A stretch of 64,000 nt of DNA from Bdellovibrionales bacterium (GCA_965197855.1 OZ240230.1:1089266-1153265), one strand, 5' to 3'; shown: positions 1,979 through 41,968, numbered from the stretch's first letter. The notes: generated from the letters alone by a model not told the origin. Made by a program: numbers and translations.

Positions 1979-3274
1979 ATGATTAAAAGATATACGAGAA
2001 AAGAAATGGGCCATGTATGGTCCAATGAAAATCGTTTTGCACAAATGTTAAACGTAGAAAAAGCAATGGCTTTTGTCCAAGGCTCTAAAAAAATTATTCC
2101 ACTAAAGGCGGCTCAAGCAATCCAGTCCAAGGCGCGCTTTTCCCTTCAATCCATTCAGAAATTAGAGGAAAAAACCCGCCATGATGTGTCGGCTTTTGTT
2201 CAAAATGTCTCTTCTTTTGTAGGAAAACCTTGGGGAGCTTATGTTCATTATGGTCTGACTTCTTCGGACGTGTTGGATACTGCTCTGAGCTTACAAATAA
2301 AAGAAGGAGCTTTGCTGATTCAAAAAGAACTAACACAATTAAAAAAAGTTTTAAAATCTGTAATTAATAAACATAAAAGTACTTTATGTGCCGGTAGAAC
2401 TCATGGAATGCATGCAGAGCCAACGACTTTTGCTTTTAAACTATTGGGTTTTTTATCTGAATTAGTGCGTGCGGAAAATTCTTTTAAACAAGCTGTTTCA
2501 GATGGGGCTTTAGGTATGATGAGTGGTCCGGTGGGGAATTATTCAAGCTCTTCTTCTGAGTTGGAGAAAGCAGTTTGTCGTCGATTGGGTCTTACTCCTG
2601 AAGTAGTGTCCACTCAAGTCTTGCCTAGAGATCGTCATGCTCGAATTATTTTTTCTATTTCTTTAATTTTAACAAACTTAGAGCGCTTGGCAGTGGAATT
2701 AAGACATTTGCAAAGGACGGAAGTATCAGAGGTCTTTGAAGGTTTTTCTAAAAATCAACAAGGCTCCAGCTCTATGCCGCATAAAAAAAATCCTATTTCT
2801 TCAGAAAATATTACAGGTCTTTCACGGTTGCTCAGATCTTATTTACAGGCTTCTTTGGAGAATATTACTTTATGGCATGAGAGAGATATCAGCCATTCTT
2901 CTGTGGAACGTGTGATCTTTCCAGATTCTTTTATTTTATGTGATTATGCATTGTTTCGAATGATTCATCTTTTGAAGAATTTAAAAGTCGATGCGAAACG
3001 TATGAAAGAAAATTTATTATCTTCAAGCGGTGAGGTCTTTTCTTCTCATATTTTACTGACTCTCATTCAAAAGGGAGTGGATCGTCAGAAAGCTTATTCT
3101 TGGATACAAGAGGCTGCTCATGGGAGTGGTTCTTTTGAGGAAGGTTTGAAAAAAACTCCAGCGAGAAAACATATTAATTCTAAATTGTTGAAAGAGATTT
3201 TTTCCGGTCAAACAGTGTTGGGCAAATTAGAAAAAACTTTTCAACAAAAGAAAATAAAAGAGCTGTGCAAGTGA
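1979..3274 (+). CDS. purB: Adenylosuccinate lyase
   Basis: 431 aa. Carries the fumarate-lyase family signature GSSSMPHKKNP and the N-terminus MIKRYTRKEMGHVWSNENRF typical of PurB. Divergent from purS. Confidence 0.9.
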   Translation: MIKRYTRKEMGHVWSNENRFAQMLNVEKAMAFVQGSKKIIPLKAAQAIQSKARFSLQSIQKLEEKTRHDVSAFVQNVSSFVGKPWGAYVHYGLTSSDVLDTALSLQIKEGALLIQKELTQLKKVLKSVINKHKSTLCAGRTHGMHAEPTTFAFKLLGFLSELVRAENSFKQAVSDGALGMMSGPVGNYSSSSSELEKAVCRRLGLTPEVVSTQVLPRDRHARIIFSISLILTNLERLAVELRHLQRTEVSEVFEGFSKNQQGSSSMPHKKNPISSENITGLSRLLRSYLQASLENITLWHERDISHSSVERVIFPDSFILCDYALFRMIHLLKNLKVDAKRMKENLLSSSGEVFSSHILLTLIQKGVDRQKAYSWIQEAAHGSGSFEEGLKKTPARKHINSKLLKEIFSGQTVLGKLEKTFQQKKIKELCK

Positions 3275-3276
3275 GA

Positions 3277-4509
3277 ATGATACTTCTTTATTTTTGTTTT
3301 ATAAGTATGGCTTGTACGTCCCTTCCTTCTGTTGAAAATAAAACAGGAAATGTTATTTTTATTCATCCGGATGGAATGTCTCTCACTCATTGGGATGCTA
3401 TTCGTTTGATTCACTCAGGCTATGAAGGGAATTTGAACTTTGATCGATTTTCACATACAGCTGTTTATCGGGGGACTATTCGAAAACAAGTGACAGCGAC
3501 TTCCAATGCGGGGGCCACTATTCATGCCTTTGGAATTAAAACAGGTGCGGATAGTTTTGGAATGGATGAGGGAAAAACTATTTTATCCAAGTCAGGGGAT
3601 CCTTATTCTATTTTAGTTTCTGCTCAGAAAGAAGGGATTAAGACAGCTCTTTGTCAGTCAGGAGTTTTGGTGGAGCCGGGGACAGCCGCTTTTGTCGCGC
3701 AGGTAAAAAGTCGTAAATATAAAGATGAAATTGCCAGGCAAATTATTGAGTCAGGAGTAGATTTAATTTTTGGAGGAGGAGAAAAGTATTTATTGCCGGA
3801 AGGTGTTCAAGGGCATTTTGGTATAGGGGAAAGAAAAGATCAGATTAATTTAATCGAAAAAGCCAAAAGCTTGGGGTATACAGTTATCTACGATTTAAAA
3901 AACTTTGAAAAACTAAGTTCCAGTTCTAAAATTCTTGGAGTGTTTGCTCACGATGATACTTACAATGATGAAGATCCTGTAGAAGTTATAAAAAAGAAGG
4001 GTTTGTATCAAAAGTCTGCTCCAACTATTGCTCAGATGACTCGATCAGCTTTGGATTTTTTAAAACAGAAAAATCAACAATTTTTACTTATTGTGGAGGA
4101 AGAAGGTACAGATAATTTTTCCAATAGAAAAAATATTGAAGGGTTTTTAATCGCTGGAAAAAGAGCGGATGAGGCACTTGGAGTTGCTTTTGATTTTCTT
4201 AAGAAGAGTCCTGATACTTTATTATTGACTACTTCGGACAGCAATGCGGGTGGCCTGGTTATATCGGAAGTTTTAAGTGAAAAAGATTCTGTTTTTCAAA
4301 CTTATCCCAACACAGTTAAAGATTCCAAAGAGCTTTCTTTTTCAATGAAGTGGGGCTCAGGAGGCTTTGATTCTCATGGAGGTATTGTGGTGAAGGCTCA
4401 GGGACTCAATGCTCATCATGTAACAGGTTTGTTGGACAATACAAAAATTTACGATTTAATGTATCTGACTTTATTTGGACGTCCGGTTGGTTCGTCTCAA
4501 GAATTATGA
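3277..4509 (+). CDS. Alkaline phosphatase family protein (secreted, possible lipoprotein)
   Basis: The track frame starts at GTG 3265, overlapping the purB stop. ATG 3277 gives a signal peptide (MILLYFCFISMAC...). Motifs IHPDGMS and TATSNAGAT resemble alkaline-phosphatase metal-site and nucleophile regions. Confidence 0.65.
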   Translation: MILLYFCFISMACTSLPSVENKTGNVIFIHPDGMSLTHWDAIRLIHSGYEGNLNFDRFSHTAVYRGTIRKQVTATSNAGATIHAFGIKTGADSFGMDEGKTILSKSGDPYSILVSAQKEGIKTALCQSGVLVEPGTAAFVAQVKSRKYKDEIARQIIESGVDLIFGGGEKYLLPEGVQGHFGIGERKDQINLIEKAKSLGYTVIYDLKNFEKLSSSSKILGVFAHDDTYNDEDPVEVIKKKGLYQKSAPTIAQMTRSALDFLKQKNQQFLLIVEEEGTDNFSNRKNIEGFLIAGKRADEALGVAFDFLKKSPDTLLLTTSDSNAGGLVISEVLSEKDSVFQTYPNTVKDSKELSFSMKWGSGGFDSHGGIVVKAQGLNAHHVTGLLDNTKIYDLMYLTLFGRPVGSSQEL

Positions 4510-5762
4510 AAATATTTCTATCTTTTTTTTTCAAATATATTTTATCACCTAGAGTAAGTTCACTTATTCGTCCTGTTTCTATTGTTTGTATTTTTGGTTT
4601 AATAGTCAGTATTGCCAGTTTAGTTGTAGTCATTAGTGTGATGTCTGGTTTTGGATCTTCTTTAAAAGATCGTTTGTTAAGTCATGAACCTCATTTGGTT
4701 GTTTATAAGGATTCTTCACAAAACATGAATTTGTTGGATCAGGTGCAAAAAATTCTAGCTCAAAGTCGTTTGGATAACGATATTCAATCGATTCGTTCTT
4801 TTGAAACACAGGATATAATTTTAAAAAATTCTGAAGGACATTTTGCGGGAGCTATTGCACGCGGTTATGGTTCAAAGGATCTTAGAGCTCTCACTCAAGG
4901 TAGTGATGAAAAATATTTCGAGGATGTGAATTCTAAGGTGGAATGGGATTCTTCAAATATTATAAGTATAAAAAAGGATAAAGTACGTATTCATATTGGA
5001 GTGGAGCTGGCGGATCAGTTATCTGCTTACGAAGGAGATTTTGTATTTATCATGCCTGCAGAAAGTTTACTCACTCCTCCCACAGACATGGCACCCCCGG
5101 AAGAGGTTCAGATTGACTCTCTTATTTTTTCTGTACATTCGTATATCAATAATAAGAAAATTCTTTATGAAAAGGGTTCTATAGTTTCTCTTCAAGAAAC
5201 AGCTTCTTTGTCTCAGGGTGTGGAGATTTTTTTAAAGGATCCTGCAAAGTATAAACCTTATAAAGAGATATTAAAAACAAAAGGCTTTGATGTGCAGTCC
5301 TGGAGTGATCAAAATTCTTCTTTGTTTTTTGCTTTAAAAATTGAAAAAATTATTATGACAGTGTTTTTGGCTTTGGCGGCTTTGATTGCCGGTTTTTCTA
5401 TTGCTTCGATGATTCAACTTTTAATGACTCAGCAAAGGCAGGACATCGGGATTCTTATGGTGATGGGATATCCTGTGAGGCAGGTTCGAAAGCTTTTTGT
5501 TCATTTGGCTTTTATGATGTCGTTTTTAGGTGTGTCTAGTGGAGTGCTTTTAGGGTATTTGATTTGTATTTTTTTAAAATTTGTTCCTATAGATCTGTTA
5601 CCTTCTATTTATGTGGATCGAAAAATTCCTGTGATTATGCAAACAGAAGTTTTTGTGGGAGTATTTATTTTAGCTGGTTTGCTGGCTTATATAATATCTT
5701 TAGTATCTGTTCGTTTTTATACTTTGTCCTCTATTGTGAATTTACTACTAAAGAAGGCTTAA
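4506..5762 (+). CDS. LolC/LolE-family lipoprotein-releasing system permease (FtsX-type)
   Basis: 418 aa. It has an N-terminal TM segment, a large periplasmic domain and three C-terminal TM segments. The N-terminus (...VSIASLVVVISVMSGFGSSLKDRLLSHEPHLVV) is typical of LolC/E. ATGA overlap with the upstream gene. Confidence 0.7.
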   Translation: MKIFLSFFFKYILSPRVSSLIRPVSIVCIFGLIVSIASLVVVISVMSGFGSSLKDRLLSHEPHLVVYKDSSQNMNLLDQVQKILAQSRLDNDIQSIRSFETQDIILKNSEGHFAGAIARGYGSKDLRALTQGSDEKYFEDVNSKVEWDSSNIISIKKDKVRIHIGVELADQLSAYEGDFVFIMPAESLLTPPTDMAPPEEVQIDSLIFSVHSYINNKKILYEKGSIVSLQETASLSQGVEIFLKDPAKYKPYKEILKTKGFDVQSWSDQNSSLFFALKIEKIIMTVFLALAALIAGFSIASMIQLLMTQQRQDIGILMVMGYPVRQVRKLFVHLAFMMSFLGVSSGVLLGYLICIFLKFVPIDLLPSIYVDRKIPVIMQTEVFVGVFILAGLLAYIISLVSVRFYTLSSIVNLLLKKA

Positions 5763-5788
5763 TAACTTGATAAACAGTATGCACTTTT

Positions 5789-5813
5789 CGTCACCCCTGC
5801 GAAGGCAGGAATG
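5789..5813 (+). repeat. Single-hairpin member of the GATGAC-hairpin repeat family
   Basis: CGTCACCCCTGCGAAGGCAGGAATG. The stem CCTGC/GCAGG with the flanking GGAAT matches hairpin A of the copies at 21.6 kb and 15.1 kb. Confidence 0.6.
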
Positions 5814-5946
5814 TTCCCGTCTCTTTCCTGTCCACAAGCCTATCTATGTGGGAGTTGGAGAGCAGAATGCGTAAATTCTATCTGCAAAACTGTTGGTAAT
5901 ACCGTGTCTTTTAGAGATTAAAGATGTACCCCTGCTGTCAAAATAC

Positions 5947-5980
5947 GTCATCCCTGCGGAGGAGGGACTTGGTCACTACA
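5947..5980 (+). repeat. Left direct repeat of the Lol-like cassette (GTCATCC hairpin plus AGGGACTTGGTCACTACA)
   Basis: CGTCATCCCTGCGGAGGAGGGACTTGGTCACTACA. The 18-mer at 5963..5980 is identical to 11113..11130. Confidence 0.7.
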
Positions 5981-6015
5981 CTGTAATGGTTAGAGATTTT
6001 AATTCACTACTGTAG

Positions 6016-6762
6016 TTATCGTCTCAAAGCGGCTTTAGTAAATTTTTGTTTGGGAATTTTTGTTGTAATATCAATATCTTCAACATGATATTCTGTTCCG
6101 TTTCCTTTGGAAAGGATATCCTTAAAATGAACTTGTTTTGGATACCATCTATTTTCCACTTGCATGACTTCTTTGATCATCGTTCTCTTTACAGTTTTTC
6201 CGCTTTTTGCCATTAAATCAGCTTTAAGAACGACCCAACGTATAGAGTCCACCCATATTTTTTGTCTCGCGTAGGGAACGTCTTTTCTTTTTGCTGTCAA
6301 TTCTAATACAAAACAGGAACGGCCTTCTATGGTTTTACGCCCTATGACTTGAGCTTTGTAGTCTTCTATCATGGAGCTGTTGCCCATATAATCTTCATAA
6401 GATAAATCTGAACCAAAAACAGATTGTTTCAGAAGATGACCGGAAATAGTAATAATTCTATCATGAGGTTCTGGAGAATAAGTCCAAAGTTTGTTGGATA
6501 ATTTTAACATTTTTTTACCTTTTTCTCGTGCGGGACTAAGGTACTCAGAGAAAGCTTCATCTTTTCCGTTGACCCAGGATTTCAGTGTCATGGTTCGTGT
6601 GCCTGAGCGGCCGTGAATCACTATTTTAATAGTCATAATGGCGTGGTCTAATAGCTGATTTTCATCTACCTTTTTTAAAATGTCTTTTCCAGATGGCAAT
6701 GAATTTGAATAAGCTGTGGTCCATATACATAGTATGGATAAAATAATAACAACTTGTTTCAA
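6016..6762 (-). CDS. LolA_like outer-membrane lipoprotein-sorting family protein (periplasmic)
   Basis: 248 aa with a signal peptide (MKQVVIILSILCIWTTAYS). The motif LWTYSPEPHDRIITISGHLLKQSVFGSDLSYEDY matches my recollection of the LolA_like family core (mW.Y.P...rv.rIs....qsfmGSDFsYeD). Last gene of the ABC cassette. Confidence 0.6.
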   Translation of the reverse strand: MKQVVIILSILCIWTTAYSNSLPSGKDILKKVDENQLLDHAIMTIKIVIHGRSGTRTMTLKSWVNGKDEAFSEYLSPAREKGKKMLKLSNKLWTYSPEPHDRIITISGHLLKQSVFGSDLSYEDYMGNSSMIEDYKAQVIGRKTIEGRSCFVLELTAKRKDVPYARQKIWVDSIRWVVLKADLMAKSGKTVKRTMIKEVMQVENRWYPKQVHFKDILSKGNGTEYHVEDIDITTKIPKQKFTKAALRR

Positions 6763-6784
6763 ATTAAACCTCCTTTAATTTTTA

Positions 6785-8059
6785 TTACACTTCTAACTCT
6801 TTAAATAACGAAGCTGTATTTCTTCTATAGATTCCCATGCCAGCCATTGCGGTTCCAATAATACAAGAAAGGACGCCAGGAATCAGTCCAATAAAAAAAC
6901 CTTCGATGGTGACTCGTGCTCTCATAACAGGAGACATCAACACAGTGGATTTTTGCATCGTTTCTGATACGTCAAATCCAACAACCTGAAGGTAATAGCA
7001 AAAGGCCATTCCCAAGGAGGCTCCCAGTGTAGCTCCAATGAGACCAATAAGTGCAGATTCATAAAGCATATAGTGCAGGAGTTCTTTTTTGGATTCTCCC
7101 ATGGCCAGTCTCACCCCCATTTCACCGTATCTTCTTAATCCGGACATCAAGCTTGAATTCCAAACTATAATGCTCATTAATAAAAGTAAAACACCGATTA
7201 TGATAACCATTGAAGTGCTCATCATTTTAAAATATTCTCCCAATCCTTCTGCCTCTTCAATGGAGGAAATGGTTAACTCATTACCATTTAATTTCTTGTC
7301 CATAGATAAAGAAGAAAATTCCTGTTTGAGCTGTTCAGCCATTTTTTTTGAATAATATCCCTGTTTGAAAAAGCCTAAAATTTCTGCCACAGAATTTTCC
7401 ATATCCAAAGCATATTGAATATCAGTAATATCAGCCAACATCATGTTTCTATCAAGCATAGGGATACCAATATTAATAAAGCCAACAACTTTAAAATTGT
7501 AAATAGCCATACTTCCTGTGGCAGTGGAGCCAATCAAGGTGGCTGTATCTCCAAGTTTAATATCTAAGTTTTCACCAAGTTTTTTGGAGACAAGGACTTC
7601 TCCTTGTTGGGAGGGCAATTGACCTTCAATAATAGCCGCTTTTATGTCAAGTCTTTCTACTTCAGTGGAATTTGAGGAAATCAAATCAATCCCTATTCCT
7701 CTGACGGGTCCCTGTGACCTGGTTTCACCGAATTGGTTTGGAATATCCAAAAGTCCTCCAAATTTTATTCGGGAAACCCAATCAACATGATCAAGAGTCT
7801 TTAATTTTTTTAAAACTTGATCCGCATGAACGATAGCAAGGTCATTAGGCATTTGATGAGCGATCTTTGCATATTCCTTTGTCATCACTTTCATATGGCC
7901 ATGCTCAAGTTTTGCACTTGTGGATAACATATCATCCTTTACACCTTTCATATATCCGTCAAAAGCTGTCATTAACATAACACCTGTTCCAATGGTGATG
8001 ATCGGAAGTAAACTTCTATGGTGATCTCTTAAGAGTCCTTTTAAAATAAAACCAAGCAT
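6785..8059 (-). CDS. ABC transporter permease, FtsX/MacB-type (large periplasmic domain)
   Basis: 424 aa. Topology is TM1, then a periplasmic domain of about 250 aa, then three TM segments. The N-terminus LKGLLRDHHRSLLPIITIGTGVMLM is typical of LolC/E and MacB permeases. Confidence 0.7.
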   Translation of the reverse strand: MLGFILKGLLRDHHRSLLPIITIGTGVMLMTAFDGYMKGVKDDMLSTSAKLEHGHMKVMTKEYAKIAHQMPNDLAIVHADQVLKKLKTLDHVDWVSRIKFGGLLDIPNQFGETRSQGPVRGIGIDLISSNSTEVERLDIKAAIIEGQLPSQQGEVLVSKKLGENLDIKLGDTATLIGSTATGSMAIYNFKVVGFINIGIPMLDRNMMLADITDIQYALDMENSVAEILGFFKQGYYSKKMAEQLKQEFSSLSMDKKLNGNELTISSIEEAEGLGEYFKMMSTSMVIIIGVLLLLMSIIVWNSSLMSGLRRYGEMGVRLAMGESKKELLHYMLYESALIGLIGATLGASLGMAFCYYLQVVGFDVSETMQKSTVLMSPVMRARVTIEGFFIGLIPGVLSCIIGTAMAGMGIYRRNTASLFKELEV

Positions 8060-9234
8060 TAAGCTTTCCCTCTCAGGGCATCTGTGGTTTTCATATGTGA
8101 AATTTTGTTTGATGGTAAAAAACTTACAATCACAACACTTAAAAGCAGTATTAATAAAGTAATGATCAGAACACCAGGGGCATAAGAAGCATAGAGGCGT
8201 GATCCTATGGCAAACCCATAACTATCTGTCAGTTTCAGAATAGGGAGACCTATCACAGCTGTGTAAACTATTAATGGAATTCCCCAAACGGCGCCAAGTA
8301 GCATAGCCAAAATCCCATTCAGACTGCCTTCGATGGTAAATAACCATACCACTTGCAATCTGTTCATTCCGAGCGCCATGAGTGTGCCGATTTCTTTTCT
8401 TCTTCTAAAAATAGCTAACACTTGAGTATCAAAAATAGCTAACAGCCCCATTCCCATTAAAAATGCATATAAAATATAACGAGGAGTTTTTTTTGTTTCA
8501 AACAATGCTTGTATATCTTTTAAAAGGAATTTTTGGCTTTTAAGTTGAAAGGATGGATCATTGACGAATGATTCTGTGTCTTTTTTAGCTATGAAAAGAG
8601 TGGCTGAATTTGGCAAGTTTGTCATTTTTCTGAGAGATTCCAGAGACAGCCAAACTTGTCCTGTATCCAATCCCGGTACAGGCATATTCATAATATGTGC
8701 AATTGTAATATCTATGGCATCAAAAATACCATGAGTATCTCTCCATCTTAAGGTGACTGTATCTCCCATCTTGAGATTTGTGTGTTTAGCCATTCTTGTT
8801 CCTATTAAGGCTGGTATTTGATCATCATTTTCATTTTTTAAAACATGTGAGGGTATTGAAATAATTTGTTGGGTGGGATTGATGCCTCTGAGCAAAACGG
8901 ATTGTCCGCGCCCATCAGGGTAGAGAGAACCCACAGCTAATAAAATAGGAGTCACATGACCTGTTTCAACTAAATTCTGTAAGGCTGTATCTGGCTGGCT
9001 GTGAGCGTCCTGTATAGTGAGTGGATCAAGAGGGTCATATTCTTTATGCCAGTACTGCCCGCCTGCATATTCATTGTCAATTTGAGCGGATTCCATTTGT
9101 TGGATGAGTCCATTCATGAGTCCCTGCATCCATATAACAAAAACAAAACCAACAGAGAGTGTAAGTACATTAAGCCATGTGCGCAGACCTGTGGATCGAA
9201 TGTTTTTTATTGCCAGGTTAAATAATATATTCAC
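8059..9234 (-). CDS. ABC transporter permease, FtsX/MacB-type (second paralogue)
   Basis: 391 aa. N-terminus LAIKNIRSTGLRTWLNVLTLSVGFVFVI, with the same topology as its neighbour. Abuts the downstream permease; its stop codon shares 1 nt (8059) with that gene's ATG. Confidence 0.7.
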   Translation of the reverse strand: MNILFNLAIKNIRSTGLRTWLNVLTLSVGFVFVIWMQGLMNGLIQQMESAQIDNEYAGGQYWHKEYDPLDPLTIQDAHSQPDTALQNLVETGHVTPILLAVGSLYPDGRGQSVLLRGINPTQQIISIPSHVLKNENDDQIPALIGTRMAKHTNLKMGDTVTLRWRDTHGIFDAIDITIAHIMNMPVPGLDTGQVWLSLESLRKMTNLPNSATLFIAKKDTESFVNDPSFQLKSQKFLLKDIQALFETKKTPRYILYAFLMGMGLLAIFDTQVLAIFRRRKEIGTLMALGMNRLQVVWLFTIEGSLNGILAMLLGAVWGIPLIVYTAVIGLPILKLTDSYGFAIGSRLYASYAPGVLIITLLILLLSVVIVSFLPSNKISHMKTTDALRGKA

Positions 9235-9239
9235 TTAAT

Positions 9240-9953
9240 TTACTCTCCATTTCTTGTGGGTTTCAGTGTTTCGTCTCTTGAGATAGTGCCGTCAATGAGA
9301 GTCACCTTTCTTCTTAAATAGTCGATGACTTTTTGATCGTGAGTAGAAAATAAAAATGTAACACCCAGGGTTTTATTTAGTTCGACCATTGTATTTAGAA
9401 TGTTATGTGAGTTTTTAGCATCTAAGTTGGCTGTCGGCTCATCTGCAATAACAATCTGTGGTTTTTTAACAATAGCTCTAGCTACAGCCACTCTTTGACT
9501 CTCTCCTCCGGAAAGTTGAGAGAAACGAGAATTAGCTTTATCTGATAACCCGACCCACTTAAGGGCTTCATCCACAGCTTGTTTTCTATATGCTGGCGGT
9601 TTTTTCAAAATCAATAATGGAAATTCAACATTTTCAAAGACAGTGTAAACTGGAAGAAGATTATAGCTTTGGAAAATAAAACCTATTGTTGTTTTTCGAA
9701 GGTTTGCCGCTTCGAAATGACTAAGGTTTGCAGTATTATTATTTAACACTTTGATACTTCCCTCTGTTGGCACATCTAAAGCTCCAACAAGATTAAGTAG
9801 AGTTGTTTTTCCGGATCCGCTGGGGCCCACCAAGCCCATGAAATCTTGTGTTCGAATTTTCAAATTGATATCTTTTAAAGCAGTAAAATCGCTACCTCCA
9901 GTAAGAAATTTTTTTGTCACTCCTTTTATTTCTATAATGATTTCTTTATCCAT
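9240..9953 (-). CDS. ABC transporter ATP-binding protein (LolD/MacB-type)
   Basis: 237 aa. Walker A GPSGSGKTT, signature LSGGESQRVAVARA and Walker B IVIADEPT are all present. Confidence 0.85.
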   Translation of the reverse strand: MDKEIIIEIKGVTKKFLTGGSDFTALKDINLKIRTQDFMGLVGPSGSGKTTLLNLVGALDVPTEGSIKVLNNNTANLSHFEAANLRKTTIGFIFQSYNLLPVYTVFENVEFPLLILKKPPAYRKQAVDEALKWVGLSDKANSRFSQLSGGESQRVAVARAIVKKPQIVIADEPTANLDAKNSHNILNTMVELNKTLGVTFLFSTHDQKVIDYLRRKVTLIDGTISRDETLKPTRNGE

Positions 9954-9971
9954 AAATTCTTACCTGCCCTT

Positions 9972-11096
9972 CTAATAATTAAAGATGATCATAGCGTAAA
10001 GTCCATGACCTGAAAAATGAATATTATTATTTTGGACTTCTTTTGGAGCAGAAAATACTCCAAAATTGAACATCCAATCGTTGTAAGATCTATTCCAGCT
10101 TAGATAGTGAATACTTTGTTTTTGTTCCCATAAATACATTTCAAGGAAGGAAATTGAATCCAGGACACTTATAGGATAACTAAGTTGAATGGCGCTCGTG
10201 TGCGATACTCTATTCCATTTTAAAATGCTCTTTTTGAAGTTTGTTATCAGATGCTCCACAGTTATATGTAATCCATTGCCAATTCCAAAGGTGTAGTCAG
10301 CGCCTACAGTGCAGGATTCAAACCATTTGCTTTGAAGTTCTGGGTTGGCGCCCTGATTAATAAGAACATATTCGTACCAAAGCCCAATATCCAAATCAAA
10401 TTTTCCATCAATAGCATATCTCGTTTCTATAGGACTTGCTGTACTTGATTTTTGTTTTAATTTTATATTTTCTGTTTTACGTCCATGCATACTGAATCCC
10501 AATTCTCCATTTTTTAATGGATATTGTATTCTTGCCCCAAATTCCGGTGTGTCTTCTTGAGTCGCAATCCATTCATATCCTTTAGGGTCTTTATTTCCAT
10601 ATAGACTCCAAATCCAAATATTCGCATTATTCATAAAAAAATACCGATATCTGATTCCAATAACTCCTTCAGTGAGTTGGAGTGGATCCGTTGGGTTTAT
10701 TTGATCAAACCACATGAGTGACCGTAATATAATGGCAGGCCCGAAGTTTATTTTTTGAAGTCCAACTCTCAGATCACTATGTGCAGTTTTTAGCTGTGTA
10801 TTGAGTCTATATATGTTTGTTTTTGCACAATAATTATTAGAAGTACAATCCTCCATCTTTCCATAAAAAATATTAGCGGAAGCATTTATATCCCAGAGAT
10901 AATTTTCTAAAAATTTATATTTTAGTGTTAACTCAGGGATATATTGCAGAGACGGTTGATGGTTCCATTGTTTTGAGACTTGATTTCCGATGTATGAAAG
11001 AGAAAGTTGTCCTTTACTTTCTTTAACAAGTTCAGCTGTTCCTGTTATGGGCATTACAATAATAAGGGATATGGCCAGAGGGATTATTGCTTTCAT
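9972..11096 (-). CDS. Putative outer-membrane beta-barrel protein (first gene of the cassette)
   Basis: The track ORF extends to 11162, but that extension reads through the repeat. Met at 11096 gives a signal peptide (MKAIIPLAISLIIVMPITGTAEL). The body has alternating amphipathic strands and ends ...YAMIIFNY (aromatic C-terminus). Confidence 0.5.
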   Translation of the reverse strand: MKAIIPLAISLIIVMPITGTAELVKESKGQLSLSYIGNQVSKQWNHQPSLQYIPELTLKYKFLENYLWDINASANIFYGKMEDCTSNNYCAKTNIYRLNTQLKTAHSDLRVGLQKINFGPAIILRSLMWFDQINPTDPLQLTEGVIGIRYRYFFMNNANIWIWSLYGNKDPKGYEWIATQEDTPEFGARIQYPLKNGELGFSMHGRKTENIKLKQKSSTASPIETRYAIDGKFDLDIGLWYEYVLINQGANPELQSKWFESCTVGADYTFGIGNGLHITVEHLITNFKKSILKWNRVSHTSAIQLSYPISVLDSISFLEMYLWEQKQSIHYLSWNRSYNDWMFNFGVFSAPKEVQNNNIHFSGHGLYAMIIFNY

Positions 11097-11103
11097 CTTT
11101 ACA

Positions 11104-11130
11104 TGCCCGCGGAGGGACTTGGTCACTACA
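11104..11130 (+). repeat. Right direct repeat of the cassette, containing an exact 18-nt duplicate of the tRNA-Leu 3' end
   Basis: TGCCCGCGGAGGGACTTG at 11104..11121 is identical to 11308..11325, the tRNA T-loop to discriminator read on the plus strand. AGGGACTTGGTCACTACA at 11113..11130 is identical to 5963..5980. Confidence 0.8.
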
Positions 11131-11177
11131 GTTGTTCGCTTCACGCTCACTCCTTGCGTCACCTCACTTCGCTCGCT

Positions 11178-11200
11178 CAGAAAATCATCCGGATTTTCTG
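11178..11200. repeat. Perfect 9-bp hairpin inside a partial repeat-family copy
   Basis: CAGAAAATC-ATCCG-GATTTTCTG. It is preceded by TCACCTCACTTCGCTCGCTCAG, which resembles GCACCTCAACCACTTCGCTCCTGCG of the 21.6-kb copy. Confidence 0.45.
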
Positions 11201-11307
11201 CTTTGTATTGAGTGTTTTCACACTTAACACAAATCGTTCGCTCATTTCAAGTCCCAGGTAATGAAAAAATAAAAAATCACTTTTGCAGGTAGTCTTTTAT
11301 TTTTTAT

Positions 11308-11389
11308 TGCCCGCGGAGGGACTTGAACCCCCACACCTTGCGGTACTAGATCCTAAGTCTAGCGCGTCTGCCAATTCCGCCACGCGGGC
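11308..11389 (-). tRNA. tRNA-Leu (anticodon UAG)
   Basis: Reverse complement: GCCCGCGTGGCGGAATTGGCAGACGCGCTAGACTTAGGATCTAGTACCGCAAGGTGTGGGGGTTCAAGTCCCTCCGCGGGCA. It has a 7-bp acceptor stem, an anticodon stem CTAGA/TCTAG with loop CTTAGGA, a long variable arm and a TTCAAGT T-loop. CCA is not encoded. Confidence 0.9.
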
Positions 11390-11917: not shown

Positions 11918-12979
11918 TTAATTTTTTGTATAAAAAGGGGTGGGGACCACTTGAGAGGGAACTAAATTTCCATGAATTTGCACAAAAAAACGGCTTCCCG
12001 ACTGAGAGAAATCTTTTTCAATTAAAGTAAGCCCTATCATTTTCTCCAAGGAAGGGGACAAAGCTCCGCTGGTTACATGCCCTATCAACTCTTTATTTTT
12101 GGAAAAGAGAGAATAAGAGTGTCTAGGAATTCCCGATTTTTCTAAAACTTCAAAACCCACCCACTTTCTTTGAGTTTCTTTGAGACAAGCTGTTTTTCCA
12201 ATAAAAGCAGATTTGTTTTTACAAGCCCAGCTTAAACCCATTTCATATGGAGACACTGTTTCATCCATGTCAGGGCCGTAAAGAGGATATTTCATTTCTA
12301 AACGCAAGGTGTCTCTCGCGGCTAAGCCTATCGGTTTTACTTTTAAATTAAGAAGTTCTTCCCAAAGATTTGAAACTTGATCATAAGGAGATAAAATTTC
12401 AAATCCATCCTCTCCAGTGTAACCGGTGCGGGAAATAAGGTGCATGCCTCCAAGGAAATTGAAAAATTGAAATTGAAATCTTTTTAAGTTTACTGATTGA
12501 AAAATTTTTTCTATCAATATTTTTGCATCAGGCCCTTGTATGGCAATTTGTCCCCACTTTTTACTCACATCCTCTATAGAAATACTTGTAAATGCCTTCA
12601 TCCATTTTAATATTTTACTCATATTACCAGCGTTTACACATATAAGATAATCTGAAGGTTTTTTGAGACAATAAAGAATCATATCATCCAAAATACCCCC
12701 TTGTTCATTGCACATAAGTGTATATTGACAATGATTTTCTCTTAAATCCTGAATGTTATTAGTTACAATAGAGGAGAGAAACTCCAGAGCTTGAGGGTCT
12801 TGGACACGGATTTCTCCCATATGGGAGACATCAAAAATTCCTGCGGTTTTTCTAACAGATAAATGTTCTTCTCTTGCATTTGAAAATTCCAGAGGCATTT
12901 TCCAGCCCGCAAAGGGAACTATTTTAGCTCCAAGCTTTTTATGACTTTCAAAAAGAGGCGTGGTTTTCAGTTCATTCAT
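11918..12979 (-). CDS. gcvT: Glycine cleavage system aminomethyltransferase T
   Basis: 353 aa. MNELKTTPLFESHKKLGAKIVPFAGWKMPLEF... and GIFDVSHMGEIRV are classic GcvT motifs. Confidence 0.9.
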   Translation of the reverse strand: MNELKTTPLFESHKKLGAKIVPFAGWKMPLEFSNAREEHLSVRKTAGIFDVSHMGEIRVQDPQALEFLSSIVTNNIQDLRENHCQYTLMCNEQGGILDDMILYCLKKPSDYLICVNAGNMSKILKWMKAFTSISIEDVSKKWGQIAIQGPDAKILIEKIFQSVNLKRFQFQFFNFLGGMHLISRTGYTGEDGFEILSPYDQVSNLWEELLNLKVKPIGLAARDTLRLEMKYPLYGPDMDETVSPYEMGLSWACKNKSAFIGKTACLKETQRKWVGFEVLEKSGIPRHSYSLFSKNKELIGHVTSGALSPSLEKMIGLTLIEKDFSQSGSRFFVQIHGNLVPSQVVPTPFYTKN

Positions 12980-15834: not shown

Positions 15835-16168
15835 TAAAAAAGGACAAGCTATTTTGGAATTTATTGTTCTGCTTTCTATTTATGTATTTGTTATTTTTTC
15901 TGTTTTTCAAATCTCATGGCTTTTGGGAGTTCGCTCCTATTTCAATCAGCAACTTTATGAATCTCTTTTTTGCATGGCTAAAGGTAATGCAGAGGCTCAC
16001 TGCGAAAAAGAGATAAGGAGGAAAAGTAGTTTTGTTTTATTTTGGGGAGAGATTAAAAATATTCATCTGAAAGGAGATAAGAGGAAATGGACAGGTTCTG
16101 TGGAAATTCAGCCTTGGAATATAAAGTTAAAAAGAATACTTCAAATCCCAGAGGATTTATTACAATGA
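15797..16168 (+). CDS. TadE-like pseudopilin (G/XXXXEF class-III signal)
   Basis: ...KNNKKG/QAILEFIVLLSIYVFVIF. An alternative start at GTG 15809 has GGAG 6 nt upstream. The gene overlaps the flp 3' end. Confidence 0.55.
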   Translation: MERPVNPKLRKNNKKGQAILEFIVLLSIYVFVIFSVFQISWLLGVRSYFNQQLYESLFCMAKGNAEAHCEKEIRRKSSFVLFWGEIKNIHLKGDKRKWTGSVEIQPWNIKLKRILQIPEDLLQ

Positions 16169-16818
16169 CATTATTAATACTATCTCCTTTATTTATTTCT
16201 ATATTTCTTTTGTCATTTTCATTTTTATTGGTGCTAAAGAGGCATAATCAAGCTTATTTTCTATGTTATAAAACAGGTGCAAAAATACAAAAGTCTCTTC
16301 AAGGTTCTTTGAAAAAATTAATCCGTATGAATATACAAGCGAAACTCTTACGAATCAGAAGAAATATTGCAGAGCTTAGATATAAATCTGCTGTCATGTC
16401 TTTAGAGCCGATAAATATATCAAAGGCCTGGAAGAATTTACAGGAAGTTAAGCTTTCACAAAAATCTTTTTCCAAAAAACAAGAGGGTATTTTACAACAG
16501 GCAAAAATCAGCCTTCAAGCTCAATGGCAGGTTTTTAAATTAAAATCCAAAAAATATATGCATCGAGTGAGAAAAACATTTACTTTGCCACCGCTGGCTG
16601 TTCGTAAAGAACCTACTTCCAGTGATTCTCCTGACTATGTGCCAGTTCAAAATTTTTCTAAAAATCAGAATATAAAAATTTCATGGAGTATGAATGGGTT
16701 TGCTTTAGTTCCTCAGTCATTACAAAAATACTTAGGGTTAAAGGGGAGTTCTCATCATCATTGTTCTGTGAGTTTAGATGATTTAAAAGACAGTTTTCAA
16801 ATTAAATTGATAAAGTAA
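16165..16818 (+). CDS. Membrane-anchored hypothetical protein of the Flp cluster (possible TadG-like)
   Basis: ATG 16165 forms an ATGA overlap with the upstream stop. N-terminal TM segment MTLLILSPLFISIFLLSFSFLLVL. The rest is Lys/Gln-rich with no recognisable motif. Confidence 0.4.
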   Translation: MTLLILSPLFISIFLLSFSFLLVLKRHNQAYFLCYKTGAKIQKSLQGSLKKLIRMNIQAKLLRIRRNIAELRYKSAVMSLEPINISKAWKNLQEVKLSQKSFSKKQEGILQQAKISLQAQWQVFKLKSKKYMHRVRKTFTLPPLAVRKEPTSSDSPDYVPVQNFSKNQNIKISWSMNGFALVPQSLQKYLGLKGSSHHHCSVSLDDLKDSFQIKLIK

Positions 16819-16840
16819 TTTTTTTTTAAAAGGAGGTCGT

Positions 16841-17020
16841 ATGAATAATAATAGAAAAAAAAGAGGCCAGGTAGTTATCGAGTTTATATGGATGATTATT
16901 TTTATCTTTGGTTTTCTCTCTTCGATTTTTTACTTGTATGATAAATCCGGAAAAGAAATTAAAAAGTATGAAATGGGTCGAAATGTGAATTATGGTTCAA
17001 CCAGCATTTTCTCTCATTAA
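16841..17020 (+). CDS. Second TadE-like mini-pseudopilin (59 aa; below the ORF-track cutoff)
   Basis: AGGAGG at 16831..16836 lies 4 nt upstream of ATG 16841. Translates MNNNRKKRG/QVVIEFIWMIIFIFGFLSSIFYLYDKSGKEIKKYEMGRNVNYGSTSIFSH*, with stop TAA at 17018..17020. Confidence 0.6.
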   Translation: MNNNRKKRGQVVIEFIWMIIFIFGFLSSIFYLYDKSGKEIKKYEMGRNVNYGSTSIFSH

Positions 17021-36991: not shown

Positions 36992-37924
36992 ATGATTAGA
37001 GTTCAGAATTTAACCAAAAAATACGGAGACAGGCTAGCTTTGGATCAGGTTAGTTTTTCTGTGGGCTCTGGTGAAGTGGTTGGTTTTCTAGGTCCTAATG
37101 GAGCTGGCAAGACAACAACCATGCGTATTTTGACAGGCTGTCTGGCTCCTACCTCGGGATTGGCTGAAATTGATGGAAAAGACGTTTTTGATTATCCTAT
37201 TCAGACTAAGGCAAAATTAGGTTACTTGCCGGAAGTGCCGCCTCTTTATGGGGATATGTATGTAGAGGATTACCTTAGATATGTGGGGCATATTAAAAGG
37301 TGTCCAGCTCATCAATTAAAAGAACAAATCAATTCTTGTATCAAGAAAACCGGTTTGAGCCAGGTTCGATCCCGTCTGATTCAAAATCTTTCTAAAGGAT
37401 ACCAGCAAAGAGTGGGGATTGCTCAGGCTTTGATGAATAATCCGGAAGTTCTGATTTTAGATGAGCCGACAGTGGGTTTGGATCCTGCTCAGGTGATAGA
37501 AATCAGAGGGCTGATCAATGATCTTAAACATCATCATACAGTGATTTTATCCACTCATATTTTGCCAGAGGTGGAAGCAAACTGTGAGAGAGTTATTATT
37601 ATTCATCAGGGAAAGGTGGCTGTAACAGGTAAACTGTCTGAACTGAGACAGCAAATGCATCAGAAAAGCTTGTCTGTTCGAGTGGAAAGATCTTCATCCA
37701 ATTTGTTAAGCCAACTGAGATCACTCAATGGGGTTCAACAAGTTCAAGAGGAAAAAAATGGGATTTATAATATCTTTGTGGATTCCGGTTCAGTGGATGT
37801 AAATGATTCCGTAGCTCGTACAGTGATAGATTGTGGAGCTGGCTTCTTGGAGCTTAAAGAAAATAAATTCAAGTTAGAAGATATATTTATTCATATTACT
37901 CGTTCCCAAGATGGAGGTTCGTAG
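36992..37924 (+). CDS. ABC-2 type transporter ATP-binding protein (GldA-like)
   Basis: Walker A GPNGAGKTTT, signature LSKGYQQRVGIAQAL and Walker B LILDEPT. Confidence 0.8.
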   Translation: MIRVQNLTKKYGDRLALDQVSFSVGSGEVVGFLGPNGAGKTTTMRILTGCLAPTSGLAEIDGKDVFDYPIQTKAKLGYLPEVPPLYGDMYVEDYLRYVGHIKRCPAHQLKEQINSCIKKTGLSQVRSRLIQNLSKGYQQRVGIAQALMNNPEVLILDEPTVGLDPAQVIEIRGLINDLKHHHTVILSTHILPEVEANCERVIIIHQGKVAVTGKLSELRQQMHQKSLSVRVERSSSNLLSQLRSLNGVQQVQEEKNGIYNIFVDSGSVDVNDSVARTVIDCGAGFLELKENKFKLEDIFIHITRSQDGGS

Positions 37925-38733
37925 TGCCATCTATTTTTGAAAATCTATGGGTGCAGATGCGGCAGATAATAGCTATTACAAAAAAGGATTTTTTTCAAAT
38001 TGTAGTAAGCCCTATGTTCTTTATTATTTTAGGTGTGAGCTGTTTTTTTTGGAGTTTTGTTTATGTTCGTTCTTTAATTGCTTTTGCCAGTCAAAGCATG
38101 TCCATGCCTATTCAAATGGCTCAAGAAGGTGGAGGGGCGAATATTCATTACCATCTATTTTTTCCATTATTGGCACAGGTGAATCTTCTATTGTTGTTTA
38201 TTGTTCCTGCTTTAACAATGAGGCTTTTTGCAGAAGAAAAAAAATTAAAGACATTTGATTTGTTGATGTCTGCCCCTTTAACATCCACTCAAATTGTTGT
38301 GGGTAAGTTCTGTGCGGCTTATAAATGTTCTTTAATTATTGTTTTTACTTCTTTTTTCTATATTGTGCTGACTTCATTTTTTGCTGATTTCAATTGGGTG
38401 ATGCCTTTTCTTTCTTATTTGGGATTGATGCTGTTAACTGCTGTCTATGTGGCTATGGGGGTTTTTGCTTCTTCTTTAAGTTCCTCTGTAGTTTTAAGTA
38501 CGATTTTAGGTGTGGTGTTTAATGTGTCTATATGGGTTATTATCAATCAGCTAAAAGATATTACTGATAATCCTATTTTTGTGTCTGTCATGGATTACTT
38601 GATTGTTCCTACACATTTTGAACAATTTCTAATGGGTAAATTCGTGATAAGTTCTTTTTGTTTCTTTATTATTATTGTTACTTTTTTAATTTTTTTAACT
38701 ATAAAAGTAGTTGATGTTTTAAGATGGAGATAG
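37924..38733 (+). CDS. ABC-2 type transporter permease (GldF-like)
   Basis: 269 aa with six predicted TM segments. Its GTG start shares 1 nt (37924) with the upstream TAG stop. Confidence 0.6.
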   Translation: MPSIFENLWVQMRQIIAITKKDFFQIVVSPMFFIILGVSCFFWSFVYVRSLIAFASQSMSMPIQMAQEGGGANIHYHLFFPLLAQVNLLLLFIVPALTMRLFAEEKKLKTFDLLMSAPLTSTQIVVGKFCAAYKCSLIIVFTSFFYIVLTSFFADFNWVMPFLSYLGLMLLTAVYVAMGVFASSLSSSVVLSTILGVVFNVSIWVIINQLKDITDNPIFVSVMDYLIVPTHFEQFLMGKFVISSFCFFIIIVTFLIFLTIKVVDVLRWR

Positions 38734-38737
38734 GTTT

Positions 38738-40339
38738 GTGTCTATAAAGTGGATGTCTAGAAGCGCCTTAATCATTAGCGCTGTTTCTTTATTGGTTCTT
38801 TTAGTGGCTCGCGCTTTCTTGGGCGGCTGGCTTCCTTTTTTATGGTGGCCTCTTGGGACTTTTCTATTGAGCTTGCTGGCAGGTTTGATTTTGGATATTC
38901 GAACTTATTGGTCTTTGTTTACATTGAAAACAACTAAAAATGGACTGGGTGTAGGTTTTACCCTTTTAATTTTAATAACTATACTTGCTTCTTTAGCTTA
39001 TTTGACCATGCGCTTTGATAAGACTTTTGATTTAACAGAAGAAAAACTTCATTCTTTATCAGATCAGACTTTAAGTGTTTTACAGTCTATGGAGGAACTT
39101 AAAATAACTGTCTTTTATAAAGGCAAACAAAATTTATCTGTCAAAAATGACTTAGATAGATATTTTAAAATTTATAAACAAAATGCTTCTCATATACAAT
39201 TTCAGTACATTGACGCTCATTTAAACAATAAGTTGGCTAGGGAATATCTGGATTCTTTATCGGATAAAAACAATAAAAATGCCTTTGTGTTTGTGGAACA
39301 TCAATCAAAGAGGGTGCGTATTGAGGAGCCTATTGATGAACGTACTATTTTATCTGCTTTGATTCGGGTTTCCAGCAGGGTTAATCAAAATATTTATTTC
39401 ACATCCGGACATGGTGAAAGAAATATGTTTGCTGACCATGCTCAGGGATTGTCTGCTTTTACTTCTGCTTTGGAGGATACTTCTTTTAATGTTGTGGAGT
39501 GGAATTTTATTGAGAAACGAGGAGGGGTGCCTGAAGATGCTTCGGCTCTTATGATTTTAGGGCCGACAAAGCCTTTTTTTGAACAGGAAATAAAGTGGAT
39601 TAAAGAATATATTCAAAAAAATGGCAGAGTGTTTATAGCTTTGGATCCAGGAGTGAATCAGAACTTAACTCCTTTCCTAAAAGAAACGCTCCATGTGGAT
39701 TTCAAAAATAATTTTATTATTAGTCCGATTTCATCATTGGTGGGTAAAAGTAATACTTCAGTAATGGGAATGGATTATAATGCGAATCATTTAATCACAA
39801 AAGATTTCGTTCAAATCATGGGTGGTTTTACCTCTATTTTTGATGAAGTCAGCCAAATTACTTTTGAAGAGCATCCACAGATGAAAATCTCTCCGTTAAT
39901 TCATTCGGTTAATGGATTTACTATTTCTTCTTTGGATATTGCGCCTGCTCAAGAGAAACAACAATCTTTTATATTGGCAGTTGCCGTTGAAGAAGAACAG
40001 AAAAAAGATTTGGAAAAAAGTAAAAAGGAAAATAAAAATGAAACTGACAGTCAAAATAAAGAAAAAGAAAATCGTTTTATTTCTGTTATTTTTGGAGATA
40101 GCAATTTTTTGACTAATAGTTCACTGAATATGGGTGTTCATAAAGATATTGCTTTAAATGTCATATCTTATCTTGCAGATCGGGAAAATTTGTTAAATAT
40201 TCGTCCGAAACAGCCTAAAGGAACTCGTATGATATTAACTCAAAGCCATAAACTAGTGCTTGTCATTGTAGCAATTTTATTGCCTTTGATTTGCTTTATT
40301 TGCGCTGTATTTATATGGGTTCGCAGGAATTGGGCGTGA
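38738..40339 (+). CDS. GldG-like ABC-transporter auxiliary protein
   Basis: 533 aa with N-terminal TM segments, a large extracytoplasmic region and a C-terminal TM segment (LVLVIVAILLPLICFICAVFIWV). Its position after the ABC-2 pair is typical of the GldG family. Confidence 0.55.
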   Translation: MSIKWMSRSALIISAVSLLVLLVARAFLGGWLPFLWWPLGTFLLSLLAGLILDIRTYWSLFTLKTTKNGLGVGFTLLILITILASLAYLTMRFDKTFDLTEEKLHSLSDQTLSVLQSMEELKITVFYKGKQNLSVKNDLDRYFKIYKQNASHIQFQYIDAHLNNKLAREYLDSLSDKNNKNAFVFVEHQSKRVRIEEPIDERTILSALIRVSSRVNQNIYFTSGHGERNMFADHAQGLSAFTSALEDTSFNVVEWNFIEKRGGVPEDASALMILGPTKPFFEQEIKWIKEYIQKNGRVFIALDPGVNQNLTPFLKETLHVDFKNNFIISPISSLVGKSNTSVMGMDYNANHLITKDFVQIMGGFTSIFDEVSQITFEEHPQMKISPLIHSVNGFTISSLDIAPAQEKQQSFILAVAVEEEQKKDLEKSKKENKNETDSQNKEKENRFISVIFGDSNFLTNSSLNMGVHKDIALNVISYLADRENLLNIRPKQPKGTRMILTQSHKLVLVIVAILLPLICFICAVFIWVRRNWA

Positions 40340-41280: not shown

Positions 41281-41299
41281 TTTTATAAAAGAGTCTCTT

Positions 41300-41968
41300 A
41301 TGCATTTATTAAAAGCTGTGTCAATATATAAAGAATTTGGTCAAGGTAAAGATGCTTTAAAAGTATTGAAGGGTTTGGATATTAAAGTGAATAAAGGAGA
41401 AGCTCTTTGTATAGTAGGGCCTTCTGGGGCTGGTAAAAGTACATTCTTACATATTTTAGGGACTCTGGATCGATCCACTTCAGGTGAAATTTTTTACCAA
41501 AATAAAAGTTTATCACATGCTACAGAAGAAGAAAGAGCGGAGTTTCGATCTCAAAAACTAGGTTTTGTCTTTCAATTTCATTATTTACTGAATGAGTTTA
41601 ACATGATAGAAAATATTATGATTGCCGGTCAGGTGGCTGGCATGAGCGCTGGCAAATCTAAAGAAAGCGCTGAATATTTAATGAATCTTTTAAATTTAAG
41701 TCATAGATGGAGGCATTTTCCTAGTGAATTAAGTGGAGGAGAAAGGCAAAGAGTGGCGATAGCCAGAGCTTTAATGAATCAGCCGGAAATTCTATTGGTA
41801 GATGAACCCACAGGAGCTTTGGATACTGATAATTCAATGAAAATTCTGGATATTCTTTTTGAAATGAGGGAGCGTTTGGGTCTGACATTGATTGCTGTTA
41901 GTCATGATCCATTGTTTTCTAATCCTTTTCCAACAGTATTAACTATGAAAGATGGCCAGTGGGTGTAA
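41300..41968 (+). CDS. lolD: Lipoprotein-releasing system ATP-binding protein LolD-like
   Basis: 222 aa. Walker A GPSGAGKST, signature LSGGERQRVAIARAL and Walker B LLVDEPT. FVFQFHYLLNEFNMIENI is typical of LolD. Confidence 0.65.
   Translation: MHLLKAVSIYKEFGQGKDALKVLKGLDIKVNKGEALCIVGPSGAGKSTFLHILGTLDRSTSGEIFYQNKSLSHATEEERAEFRSQKLGFVFQFHYLLNEFNMIENIMIAGQVAGMSAGKSKESAEYLMNLLNLSHRWRHFPSELSGGERQRVAIARALMNQPEILLVDEPTGALDTDNSMKILDILFEMRERLGLTLIAVSHDPLFSNPFPTVLTMKDGQWV

Follow-up and report, generated by a model that had tools for sequence, protein, structure and literature searches.

A strain-variable five-gene cassette at a tRNA-Leu site in Bdellovibrionales: a candidate trans-envelope exporter combining a type VII-like ABC transporter, a LolA-like protein and a porin-like barrel

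In diderm bacteria, the crossing of the periplasm by hydrophobic molecules is known for few cargoes: lipoproteins (Lol), lipopolysaccharide (Lpt) and phospholipids (Mla and AsmA-like proteins). The substrate of LolCDE is a triacylated lipoprotein, and the Hook on LolC is the feature at which LolA docks. ATP-binding cassette (ABC) transporters of type VII act on the periplasmic side: rather than moving substrates through the inner membrane, they use ATP to move their periplasmic domains and so extract or push molecules there, and the role of each system is set by its partner, be it LolA, MacA–TolC, EnvC or TesA (PMC12646458). Here we describe a five-gene cassette in a stretch of 64,000 nucleotides from Bdellovibrionales bacterium (GCA_965197855.1, OZ240230.1:1089266-1153265; the whole stretch is hereafter called the window). 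It couples a predicted Lol-type extractor, a soluble LolA-like carrier of the family PF17131 and a putative private outer-membrane channel, and it recurs in many phyla. The cassette is probably an accessory, horizontally acquired trans-envelope exporter built on a type VII (MacB/LolCDE-type) ABC transporter.

Analogous combinations of a LolA-like protein with a barrel have been described computationally or by correlation only. The Borrelia cluster BBJ23-29 (Nixon et al. 2026) was predicted computationally to comprise an Omp85-like barrel, a MacB-like ABC transporter and a LolA-like protein (PMC13078400). Other systems unite a DUF1302 barrel and a DUF1329 or PF17131 protein with an RND or MMPL transporter, as in AmeABCD of Castellaniella, Sama_1588-1591, PG1175-81 of P. 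gingivalis, the Prevotella locus L090 and TOL_3187/3188 of Thalassolituus. Very hydrophobic substrates or stress elicit a response from modules with a LolA-like protein, a barrel and an inner-membrane transporter (PMC6394551, PMC6304351, PMC10434189, bioRxiv 10.1101/072470). AmeABCD is associated with monoterpene tolerance (PMC6394551), a co-fit four-gene cluster has been reported from Shewanella and Pseudomonas (bioRxiv 10.1101/072470), TOL_3187/3188 is induced on n-C28 (PMC6304351), and the TetR-controlled operons of PG1175-81 and Prevotella show a 13- to 200-fold induction when iron or haem is limiting (PMC10434189, PMC13096392). L090 was read here for the gene content of such a TetR-controlled MMPL operon.

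An earlier note on this DNA, made from the sequence alone, had proposed five co-directional, tightly packed genes for an outer-membrane barrel, a LolD/MacB-type ATPase, two paralogous FtsX/MacB permeases and a LolA_like protein. In the six-frame list of open reading frames (ORFs), all five lie exactly where that note had placed them, as one block on the minus strand:

9972-11096, minus strand: barrel gene, ATG start, 374 aa
9240-9953, minus strand: ABC ATPase gene
8059-9234, minus strand: permease A gene
6785-8059, minus strand: permease B gene
6016-6762, minus strand: PF17131 protein gene, 248 aa

Spacers of 18, 5 and 22 nt separate the genes, except for the two permease genes, which share 1 nt. 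A longer, GTG-start ORF of the barrel gene reaches 11162 and thereby enters a tRNA-derived repeat (see below). The ATG at 11096 is preferred as the start because the signal peptide MKAIIPLAISLIIVMPITGTA/E is found there and because homologues begin there. An exact look-up of the annotated 396-aa version of the barrel returned no matching record.

On sequence grounds, the ABC part of the cassette is a member of the type VII (MacB/FtsX-type) superfamily. The ATPase (ABC_tran, E 1.5e-34), of the LolD/MacB/FtsE type, has an intact Walker A (GPSGSGKT), signature (LSGGESQR), Walker B (IVIADEPT) and H-loop (STHD) in translation. LolD (TIGR02211) is its best NCBIfam match, at 225 bits against a cutoff of 307.75. 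Both permeases match FtsX (PF02687) and MacB_PCD (PF12704) above the gathering cutoff, and a type VII topology, in which a large periplasmic MacB_PCD domain separates TM1 from TM2 of the four FtsX-type transmembrane (TM) segments, is backed by the hydrophobic segments and by DSSP. In NCBIfam, LolD and lolCE rank first for the ATPase and permease A, far below the curated cutoffs; with lolCE (TIGR02212), permease A scores 58.3 bits and permease B 37.2 bits, against a cutoff of 362.45. The AlphaFold2 model of permease A (pLDDT 83.4) finds LolE of lipoprotein-bound LolCDE as its top Foldseek match (9rld_E, E 1.6e-18, TM-score 0.71), followed by LolC, MacB, HrtB, YtrF and YbbP, the MacB structure 5gko being matched at E 9e-16. 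The two permeases are distant paralogues (20% identity, BLASTP E 4e-15) that presumably form a heterodimer. Both are nevertheless retained in every complete locus, which suggests that they share out the work much as LolC and LolE do.

The 248-aa protein, whose translation carries the motif SVFGSDLSYEDY singled out in the earlier note, matches PF17131 over the entire profile (1-184 of 184; E 8e-49, 166.2 bits against a cutoff of 30). Solved relatives of this family, also called TP_0789-like, are 3buu, 3bk5, 4z48 and 9tp6, the first three being LolA-superfamily structures matched at E ~1e-11, so that the LolA fold proposed earlier stands. Among the LolA equivalog models only LolA1_Flavo gives a match, whose 15.5 bits fall short of the cutoff of 100. 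The protein has a type I signal peptide without lipobox and a single, N-terminal hydrophobic segment (residues 4-22); a secreted, non-lipidated periplasmic protein of this kind is presumably the carrier of the cassette. Within cassettes, PF17131 proteins remain 42-63% identical across phyla. The window protein shares only 22-25% identity with the three near-full-length plasmid matches that were annotated or whose neighbouring genes were read, of which those in Haliovirga and Prevotella adjoin an MMPL transporter and that in Burkholderia belongs to a rearranged ABC variant. Literature searches on TP0789, on PF17131 and on LolA-like proteins with FtsX found nothing functional.

The 374-aa protein also bears an N-terminal signal peptide. 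It has no Pfam and no NCBIfam match, and none of 52 family members matches a relevant Pfam model even at E<=1. Its barrel fold is confidently predicted by an AlphaFold2 model built on an alignment of these 52 sequences (pLDDT 86.9, pTM 0.83), in which DSSP counts 18 beta-strands, one side having short turns and the other long loops. In the PDB, Foldseek finds the general porins Omp36, OmpC, OmpF and OmpK36 and the 18-stranded Campylobacter MOMP (E 1e-10 to 1e-8, TM-score 0.52-0.55, 10-12% identity). OmpC/OmpF-type porins have 16 strands and the model 18, and there is no porin Pfam match. The barrel does not resemble Omp85 proteins: PF01103 is not matched, and the top 50 structural matches are porins rather than BamA or TamA. 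The most conserved part of the family is a 30-residue non-strand segment between strands 5 and 6 (GLQKINFGPA..WFD..DPTDP), where Q114, N117, F118, G119, P120, R125, L127, W129, F130, D131 and D137 are invariant in the alignment. Judging from strand order in the model, this loop may occupy the position of the porin constriction loop L3, and its conservation points to a specific site, not a passive pore. At E<=1e-3, the family comprises 917 clusters (50% identity) among 1.84 billion representatives, all of them unnamed; it is a barrel family without curated description. Some homologues (P0093 and P0102, also P0234 and P0277) are ~620-646 aa long, and in P0093 and P0102 the N-terminal extension carries a peptidoglycan-binding SPOR domain (PF05036), which is consistent with a cell-wall-tethered outer-membrane protein.

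That these five genes form a unit is apparent from their distribution. A scan of one genome per species (GTDB) yielded at least 560 stretches encoding a relative of the barrel, and gene order was counted in the best 80 of these. Among the 80, all five genes are co-linear in 51, 26 contigs are too short to judge (in most of them the ATPase at least directly follows the barrel) and 3 deviate. The conserved order is barrel, ATPase, permease A, permease B and PF17131 protein, with a median span of 5056 bp. What had been read from the window alone as a self-contained module is thus co-linear in 51 of the 54 assessable species-representative loci, and in 59 of 62 when 8 context loci (6 distinct places) are added; the contigs around barrel homologues of 36-50% identity had an identical gene order every time, sometimes with TetR ahead. 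Such an arrangement is far beyond chance. Median identities to the window proteins are 38% for the barrel, 60% for the ATPase, 47% and 44% for the permeases and 50% for the carrier, and the barrels of co-linear loci are only 35-45% identical. A TetR gene lies upstream in 18 of the 54 loci and a MarR gene in 2. On the downstream side there is no conservation of neighbours, and the 54 loci have no recurrent biosynthetic or catabolic gene; nor is any lipoprotein gene conserved beside the cassette.

Departures from this order take several forms. At L027 the five genes are present but rearranged, the four others converging on the barrel gene; L081 has a barrel and a PF17131 protein with a fused double FtsX permease upstream; and at L047 (4325-11497) the barrel homologue lies directly upstream of TamB and a TamA-like Omp85 gene, with no ABC or PF17131 genes linked. 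A Burkholderia plasmid encodes a distant barrel homologue (hhalign probability 92.8%) in a rearranged operon of PF17131 protein, ATPase and fused permease. By record titles, the loci belong to Desulfobacterota, Bdellovibrionota, Bacteroidota, Ignavibacteriota, Calditrichota, Aminicenantes/Acidobacteriota, Marinimicrobia, Latescibacterota, KSB1, Zixibacteria, Poribacteria and one Reinekea genome; two Persicobacter replicons represent cultured carriers, among them pPP1 of Persicobacter psychrovividus NBRC 101262, with the barrel encoded at ~15884-17020 and the PF17131 protein at 11972-12694. Eight loci (L025, L027, L032, L043, L044, L058, L061 and L081) are titled 'uncultured Eubacteriales' or 'Patescibacteria group', which probably reflects wrong taxonomic labels rather than barrels in monoderm bacteria. 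In L011, L029, L063, L064, L065, L068, L080 and L082, from several phyla, unrelated ORFs of ~120-160 aa lie between cassette genes, and some appear from pooled Pfam counts to be 23S-rRNA-IVS-protein or PD-(D/E)XK_3 fillers. These ORFs were considered as a sixth component and rejected, not being homologous to one another.

The accessory status of the cassette is directly demonstrated by comparison with close relatives. It sits between gcvT-gcvH-tRNA-Leu and lolF-phosphatase-purB, flanks that share ~80% DNA identity among the compared contigs, and the tRNA-Leu gene adjoins gcvH in relatives with and without the cassette. The content of the site varies as follows:

window, L086 and L088: the cassette
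L093: 564 bp only, with a 92-aa ORF
L094: three ORFs of ~460 aa each
L092: ~8 kb of unrelated cargo (HI1420-type antitoxin, GyrI-like protein, peptidase S8 and AAA/nSTAND3)

L092, L093 and L094 all keep lolF and have no cassette at the syntenic site, and the interval between tRNA-Leu(tag) and lolF is accordingly a variable hotspot in this Bdellovibrionales clade. Cluster mates of GcvH identify the clade as Bdellovibrionales, in agreement with the closest named permease homologue. The L092 cargo is defence-like in appearance. By blastn, window 14198->11291 corresponds to L093 7684-10539 and window 5759->3287 to L093 11104-13586, so the five genes move together as one indel. The features of the site in the window are:

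11308-11389, minus strand: tRNA-Leu(tag), called by ARAGORN and Rfam, one edge of the variable site
5760-11290: 5.5-kb segment missing from L093, comprising spacer, five genes and upstream element
11111-11130, minus strand: upstream copy of a perfect 20-nt direct repeat, TGTAGTGACCAAGTCCCTCC
5961-5980, minus strand: downstream copy of the repeat, 36 nt past the last gene's stop codon

The upstream copy runs on into 17 nt (11104-11120) that are identical to the 3′ end of the tRNA-Leu gene, and no perfect 20-nt repeat is expected by chance; the downstream copy overlaps a terminator-like hairpin (5950-5968). An insert bracketed by tRNA-derived repeats is the hallmark of integration at a tRNA gene. 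The insert is taken up by the five genes and contains no integrase or recombinase gene, and its GC content is not distinguishable from that of the flanks; integration was therefore probably old or catalysed in trans.

Between the tRNA-Leu and the barrel gene lies an element of ~160-180 nt (window 11097-11275, minus strand) that ends in a copy of the tRNA 3′ end. It recurs after the tRNA-Leu in L094 (10560-10830, ~1.4 tandem copies), L092 (10560-10640), L088 (8915-9088) and L086 (9800-10002), and forms two hairpins whose pairing is kept by compensatory changes; it has no Rfam match. A cassette-specific riboswitch was considered for this ~180-nt region and rejected, given that Rfam finds nothing and that the element occurs without the cassette. 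Since it follows the tRNA-Leu in cassette-less relatives as well, it belongs to the hotspot and not to the cassette, and could be what remains of an island end or att site, or else a small RNA that has escaped annotation. Two further irregularities were seen at this site. In L088 (8770-8866), the 5′ half of the tRNA-Leu T-arm has given way to 31 nt from the repeat element, and ARAGORN no longer calls the gene. L086 has, upstream of its barrel gene (9669-9814), a second copy of the lolF 3′ end that is 149 nt long and shares 84% identity with window 5613-5761, the full lolF also being present downstream; this duplicate is a rearrangement scar at the hotspot.

The cassette is separate from the housekeeping Lol genes of the window, as the earlier note had held. 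The permease encoded at 4506-5762 aligns along its whole length with solved LolF and LolC (E 9e-21 and 2e-20) and reaches 156 bits with lolCE, whereas the cassette permeases reach only E 2e-5 and 9e-3 with LolE and LolC and are equally close to YtrF and MacB. LolD is better matched (251 bits) by the ATPase encoded at 41300-41968, to which the cassette ATPase is 33% identical. The gene for this ATPase is an orphan, with bamA-skp on one side and on the other a GldAFG-like ABC-2 set that includes an ATPase of its own, and its product is therefore a plausible partner of the orphan LolF. The cassette is thus not the sole Lol system, and its absence from the same site in close relatives fits the idea of a second, dedicated system. 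As to the surroundings of these genes, window 36992-44500 (plus strand) encodes the GldA/GldF/GldG-like ABC-2 set and a DUF4340 protein, then the LolD-like ATPase, then bamA-skp; the 36 kb that separate lolF from the LolD-like gene make for an unusual split arrangement. An alkaline-phosphatase-family gene (3265-4509, plus strand) overlaps the start of the LolF-like gene (plus strand) by 4 nt, encodes a product with a lipoprotein-type signal peptide (…ISMAC) and is paired with lolF in all relatives examined.

Set beside LolCDE-LolA-LolB of E. coli and its LolF variants, the cassette likewise has a soluble periplasmic partner of the LolA superfamily, and the permease A model superposes best on LolE. 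However, its permeases and ATPase fall below the lolCE and LolD cutoffs, its carrier is a PF17131 protein and not LolA, its outer-membrane partner is predicted to be an integral barrel of ~18 strands whereas LolB is a lipoprotein, and it is accessory and strain-variable, beside a genuine LolF gene. Borrelia BBJ23-29 is similar in that a non-polar ligand was proposed to be extracted and delivered to the outer membrane (PMC13078400), and in that it too is found on variable elements. By description, however, its barrel (BBJ25) is Omp85-like and its permease homodimeric, and the cluster has two extra chaperone-like genes. Homology of barrel and carrier to BBJ23-29 is not detectable, since tblastn of both against 72,556 plasmids gave no Borrelia match.

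The systems with an RND or MMPL engine share with the cassette a LolA-superfamily protein, a dedicated barrel and an inner-membrane transporter, have no adaptor and no TolC, and often have a TetR gene upstream. In contrast, their engine is proton-driven, and the MMPL-adjacent PF17131 proteins of Prevotella and Haliovirga are ~25% identical to that of the window. The cassette barrel and DUF1302 barrels share a short motif, R-x-G-x-Q-x-I/V-x-W/F-G ... D..P.D, after the same barrel strand. We considered whether the barrel is a divergent DUF1302 protein and do not claim homology: PF06980 matches none of the 52 family members at E<=1, and hhalign gives probabilities of 3.9% and 7.7% (E 0.011 and 0.0045), the alignment being confined to the RxGxQ...WG...D.P.D stretch. 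With MacAB-TolC the cassette shares the type VII permease fold and, by analogy, mechanotransmission; unlike it, the cassette has no membrane-fusion adaptor or TolC-family gene (HlyD and OEP domains are absent from the five products and from the common neighbours in the 54 loci), its ATPase is a separate polypeptide and its permeases are presumably heterodimeric. YbbAP-TesA, which extracts hydrophobic compounds from the inner membrane, is likewise a type VII ABC system defined by its periplasmic partner, but it has an esterase in place of the LolA-fold carrier, a fused 10-TM permease and no outer-membrane component (PMC12646458).

If the cassette is an exporter, a dimer of the ATPase would power the heterodimer of the two four-TM permeases, whose large periplasmic domains would, by mechanotransmission, draw a hydrophobic or lipid-anchored substrate from the inner membrane's outer leaflet. 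The substrate would be handed to the soluble PF17131 protein, which would carry or bridge it to the porin-like barrel, where the conserved, inward-folding loop might serve as a specific site for insertion into, or passage through, the outer membrane. Carrier and barrel would in this way take the place of the LolB receptor of the Lol pathway and of the adaptor and TolC of MacAB-type pumps. We infer the physical contacts, the outward direction and the nature of the cargo, as well as delivery to or through the outer membrane; to our knowledge, outward is the only direction known for type VII ABC systems. Given TetR genes in a third of the loci, the lack of linked synthesis genes and the dispensability of the cassette, an inducible exporter of a membrane-resident lipid or other hydrophobic compound is favoured over a housekeeping role in biogenesis. 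Several points weigh against this proposal. FtsEX is a type VII system that does not transport. The window copy itself has no TetR gene, no cargo gene is linked to the cassette, and the turns on the periplasmic side of the barrel model are short and it lacks a periplasmic domain, so that docking of a soluble carrier is not obvious. In L088 (9087-10209) the barrel gene is apparently frameshifted into two frames; together with the tRNA lesion of that contig, this reflects either gene conversion and decay, or long-read assembly errors. Finally, the literature searches found no experimental study of any member of the cassette family, which agrees with the statement in the earlier note that the cargo and function of LolA_like-linked ABC cassettes are not established.

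The main rival explanation is a second, specialised lipoprotein-sorting pathway, in which certain acylated lipoproteins would be extracted by the permeases and chaperoned by the PF17131 protein, and the barrel would be a surface translocon or a receptor or insertase substituting for LolB. Surface lipoproteins are abundant in many of the cassette-bearing phyla, lipoprotein-bound LolE is the nearest match of the permease A model, the permeases would be heterodimeric as are LolC and LolE, the carrier belongs to the LolA superfamily, the cassette encodes no LolB-like lipoprotein, and the same idea has been put forward for Borrelia BBJ23-29 (PMC13078400). We nevertheless hold this pathway to be rather improbable, as scores lie far under the Lol equivalog cutoffs, the carrier is not LolA proper (15.5 bits against 100 with LolA1_Flavo), close relatives dispense with the cassette, only a small fraction of species has it, TetR control is frequent and typical of small-molecule efflux, and no lipoprotein gene is conserved next to it. 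Another explanation would make the cassette the housekeeping Lol system itself. LolD and lolCE are indeed the top NCBIfam names for the ATPase and permease A; every score is below cutoff, however, the much better LolF/LolC match at 4506-5762 and the orphan LolD-like ATPase at 41300-41968 are encoded elsewhere in the window, and L092, L093 and L094 keep lolF without having the cassette at the same locus. Together these observations effectively refute that explanation.

Alternatively, the system might work in the retrograde direction and take up hydrophobic nutrients or lipids, which would enter through the barrel, be ferried inward by the PF17131 protein and be inserted or imported by the ABC part. 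Mla, which has an ABC transporter, a soluble carrier and a porin-associated outer-membrane component, offers a precedent. In Thalassolituus, a fused MMPL-LolA-like protein and the adjacent porin are induced on the n-C28 alkane (PMC6304351), and a DUF1329 mutant grows poorly on monoterpenes (PMC6394551). Uptake is still unlikely: no catabolic genes are linked in the 54 loci, and TetR control is typical of efflux. We know of no characterised type VII ABC system that imports, and those characterised act outward or within the periplasm (PMC12646458). Finally, the five genes may be mere neighbours, the barrel being an unrelated general porin and the ABC system working alone or with partners encoded elsewhere. 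This might be read from the Foldseek result, which gives general porins only, at moderate TM-scores, and from L047, where the homologue stands beside TamB/TamA with no ABC genes near. Yet co-linearity in 51 of 54 loci from many phyla, maintained despite barrel identities of 35-45%, the tight intergenic gaps and the movement of the five genes as a single indel make fortuitous neighbourhood very hard to believe.

An accessory exporter with its own carrier and barrel would be one instance of a wider pattern, the cassette being a conserved, unstudied variant of a recurring design in which an inner-membrane engine is combined with a LolA-fold protein and a private barrel. We would suggest, tentatively and as a less likely possibility, that it represents a widespread uncharacterised class of type VII ABC systems defined by a LolA-fold carrier and an outer-membrane channel of its own, and that the carrier-barrel pair is ancient, swaps engines (ABC here, RND or MMPL elsewhere) and spreads as a mobile unit. 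PF17131 proteins are now annotated by analogy as "outer membrane lipoprotein-sorting protein". Identification of the cargo would add a transport route to those known and define the function of PF17131, and the presence or absence of the cassette at a single tRNA-linked site provides natural, isogenic-like comparisons within this Bdellovibrionales clade.

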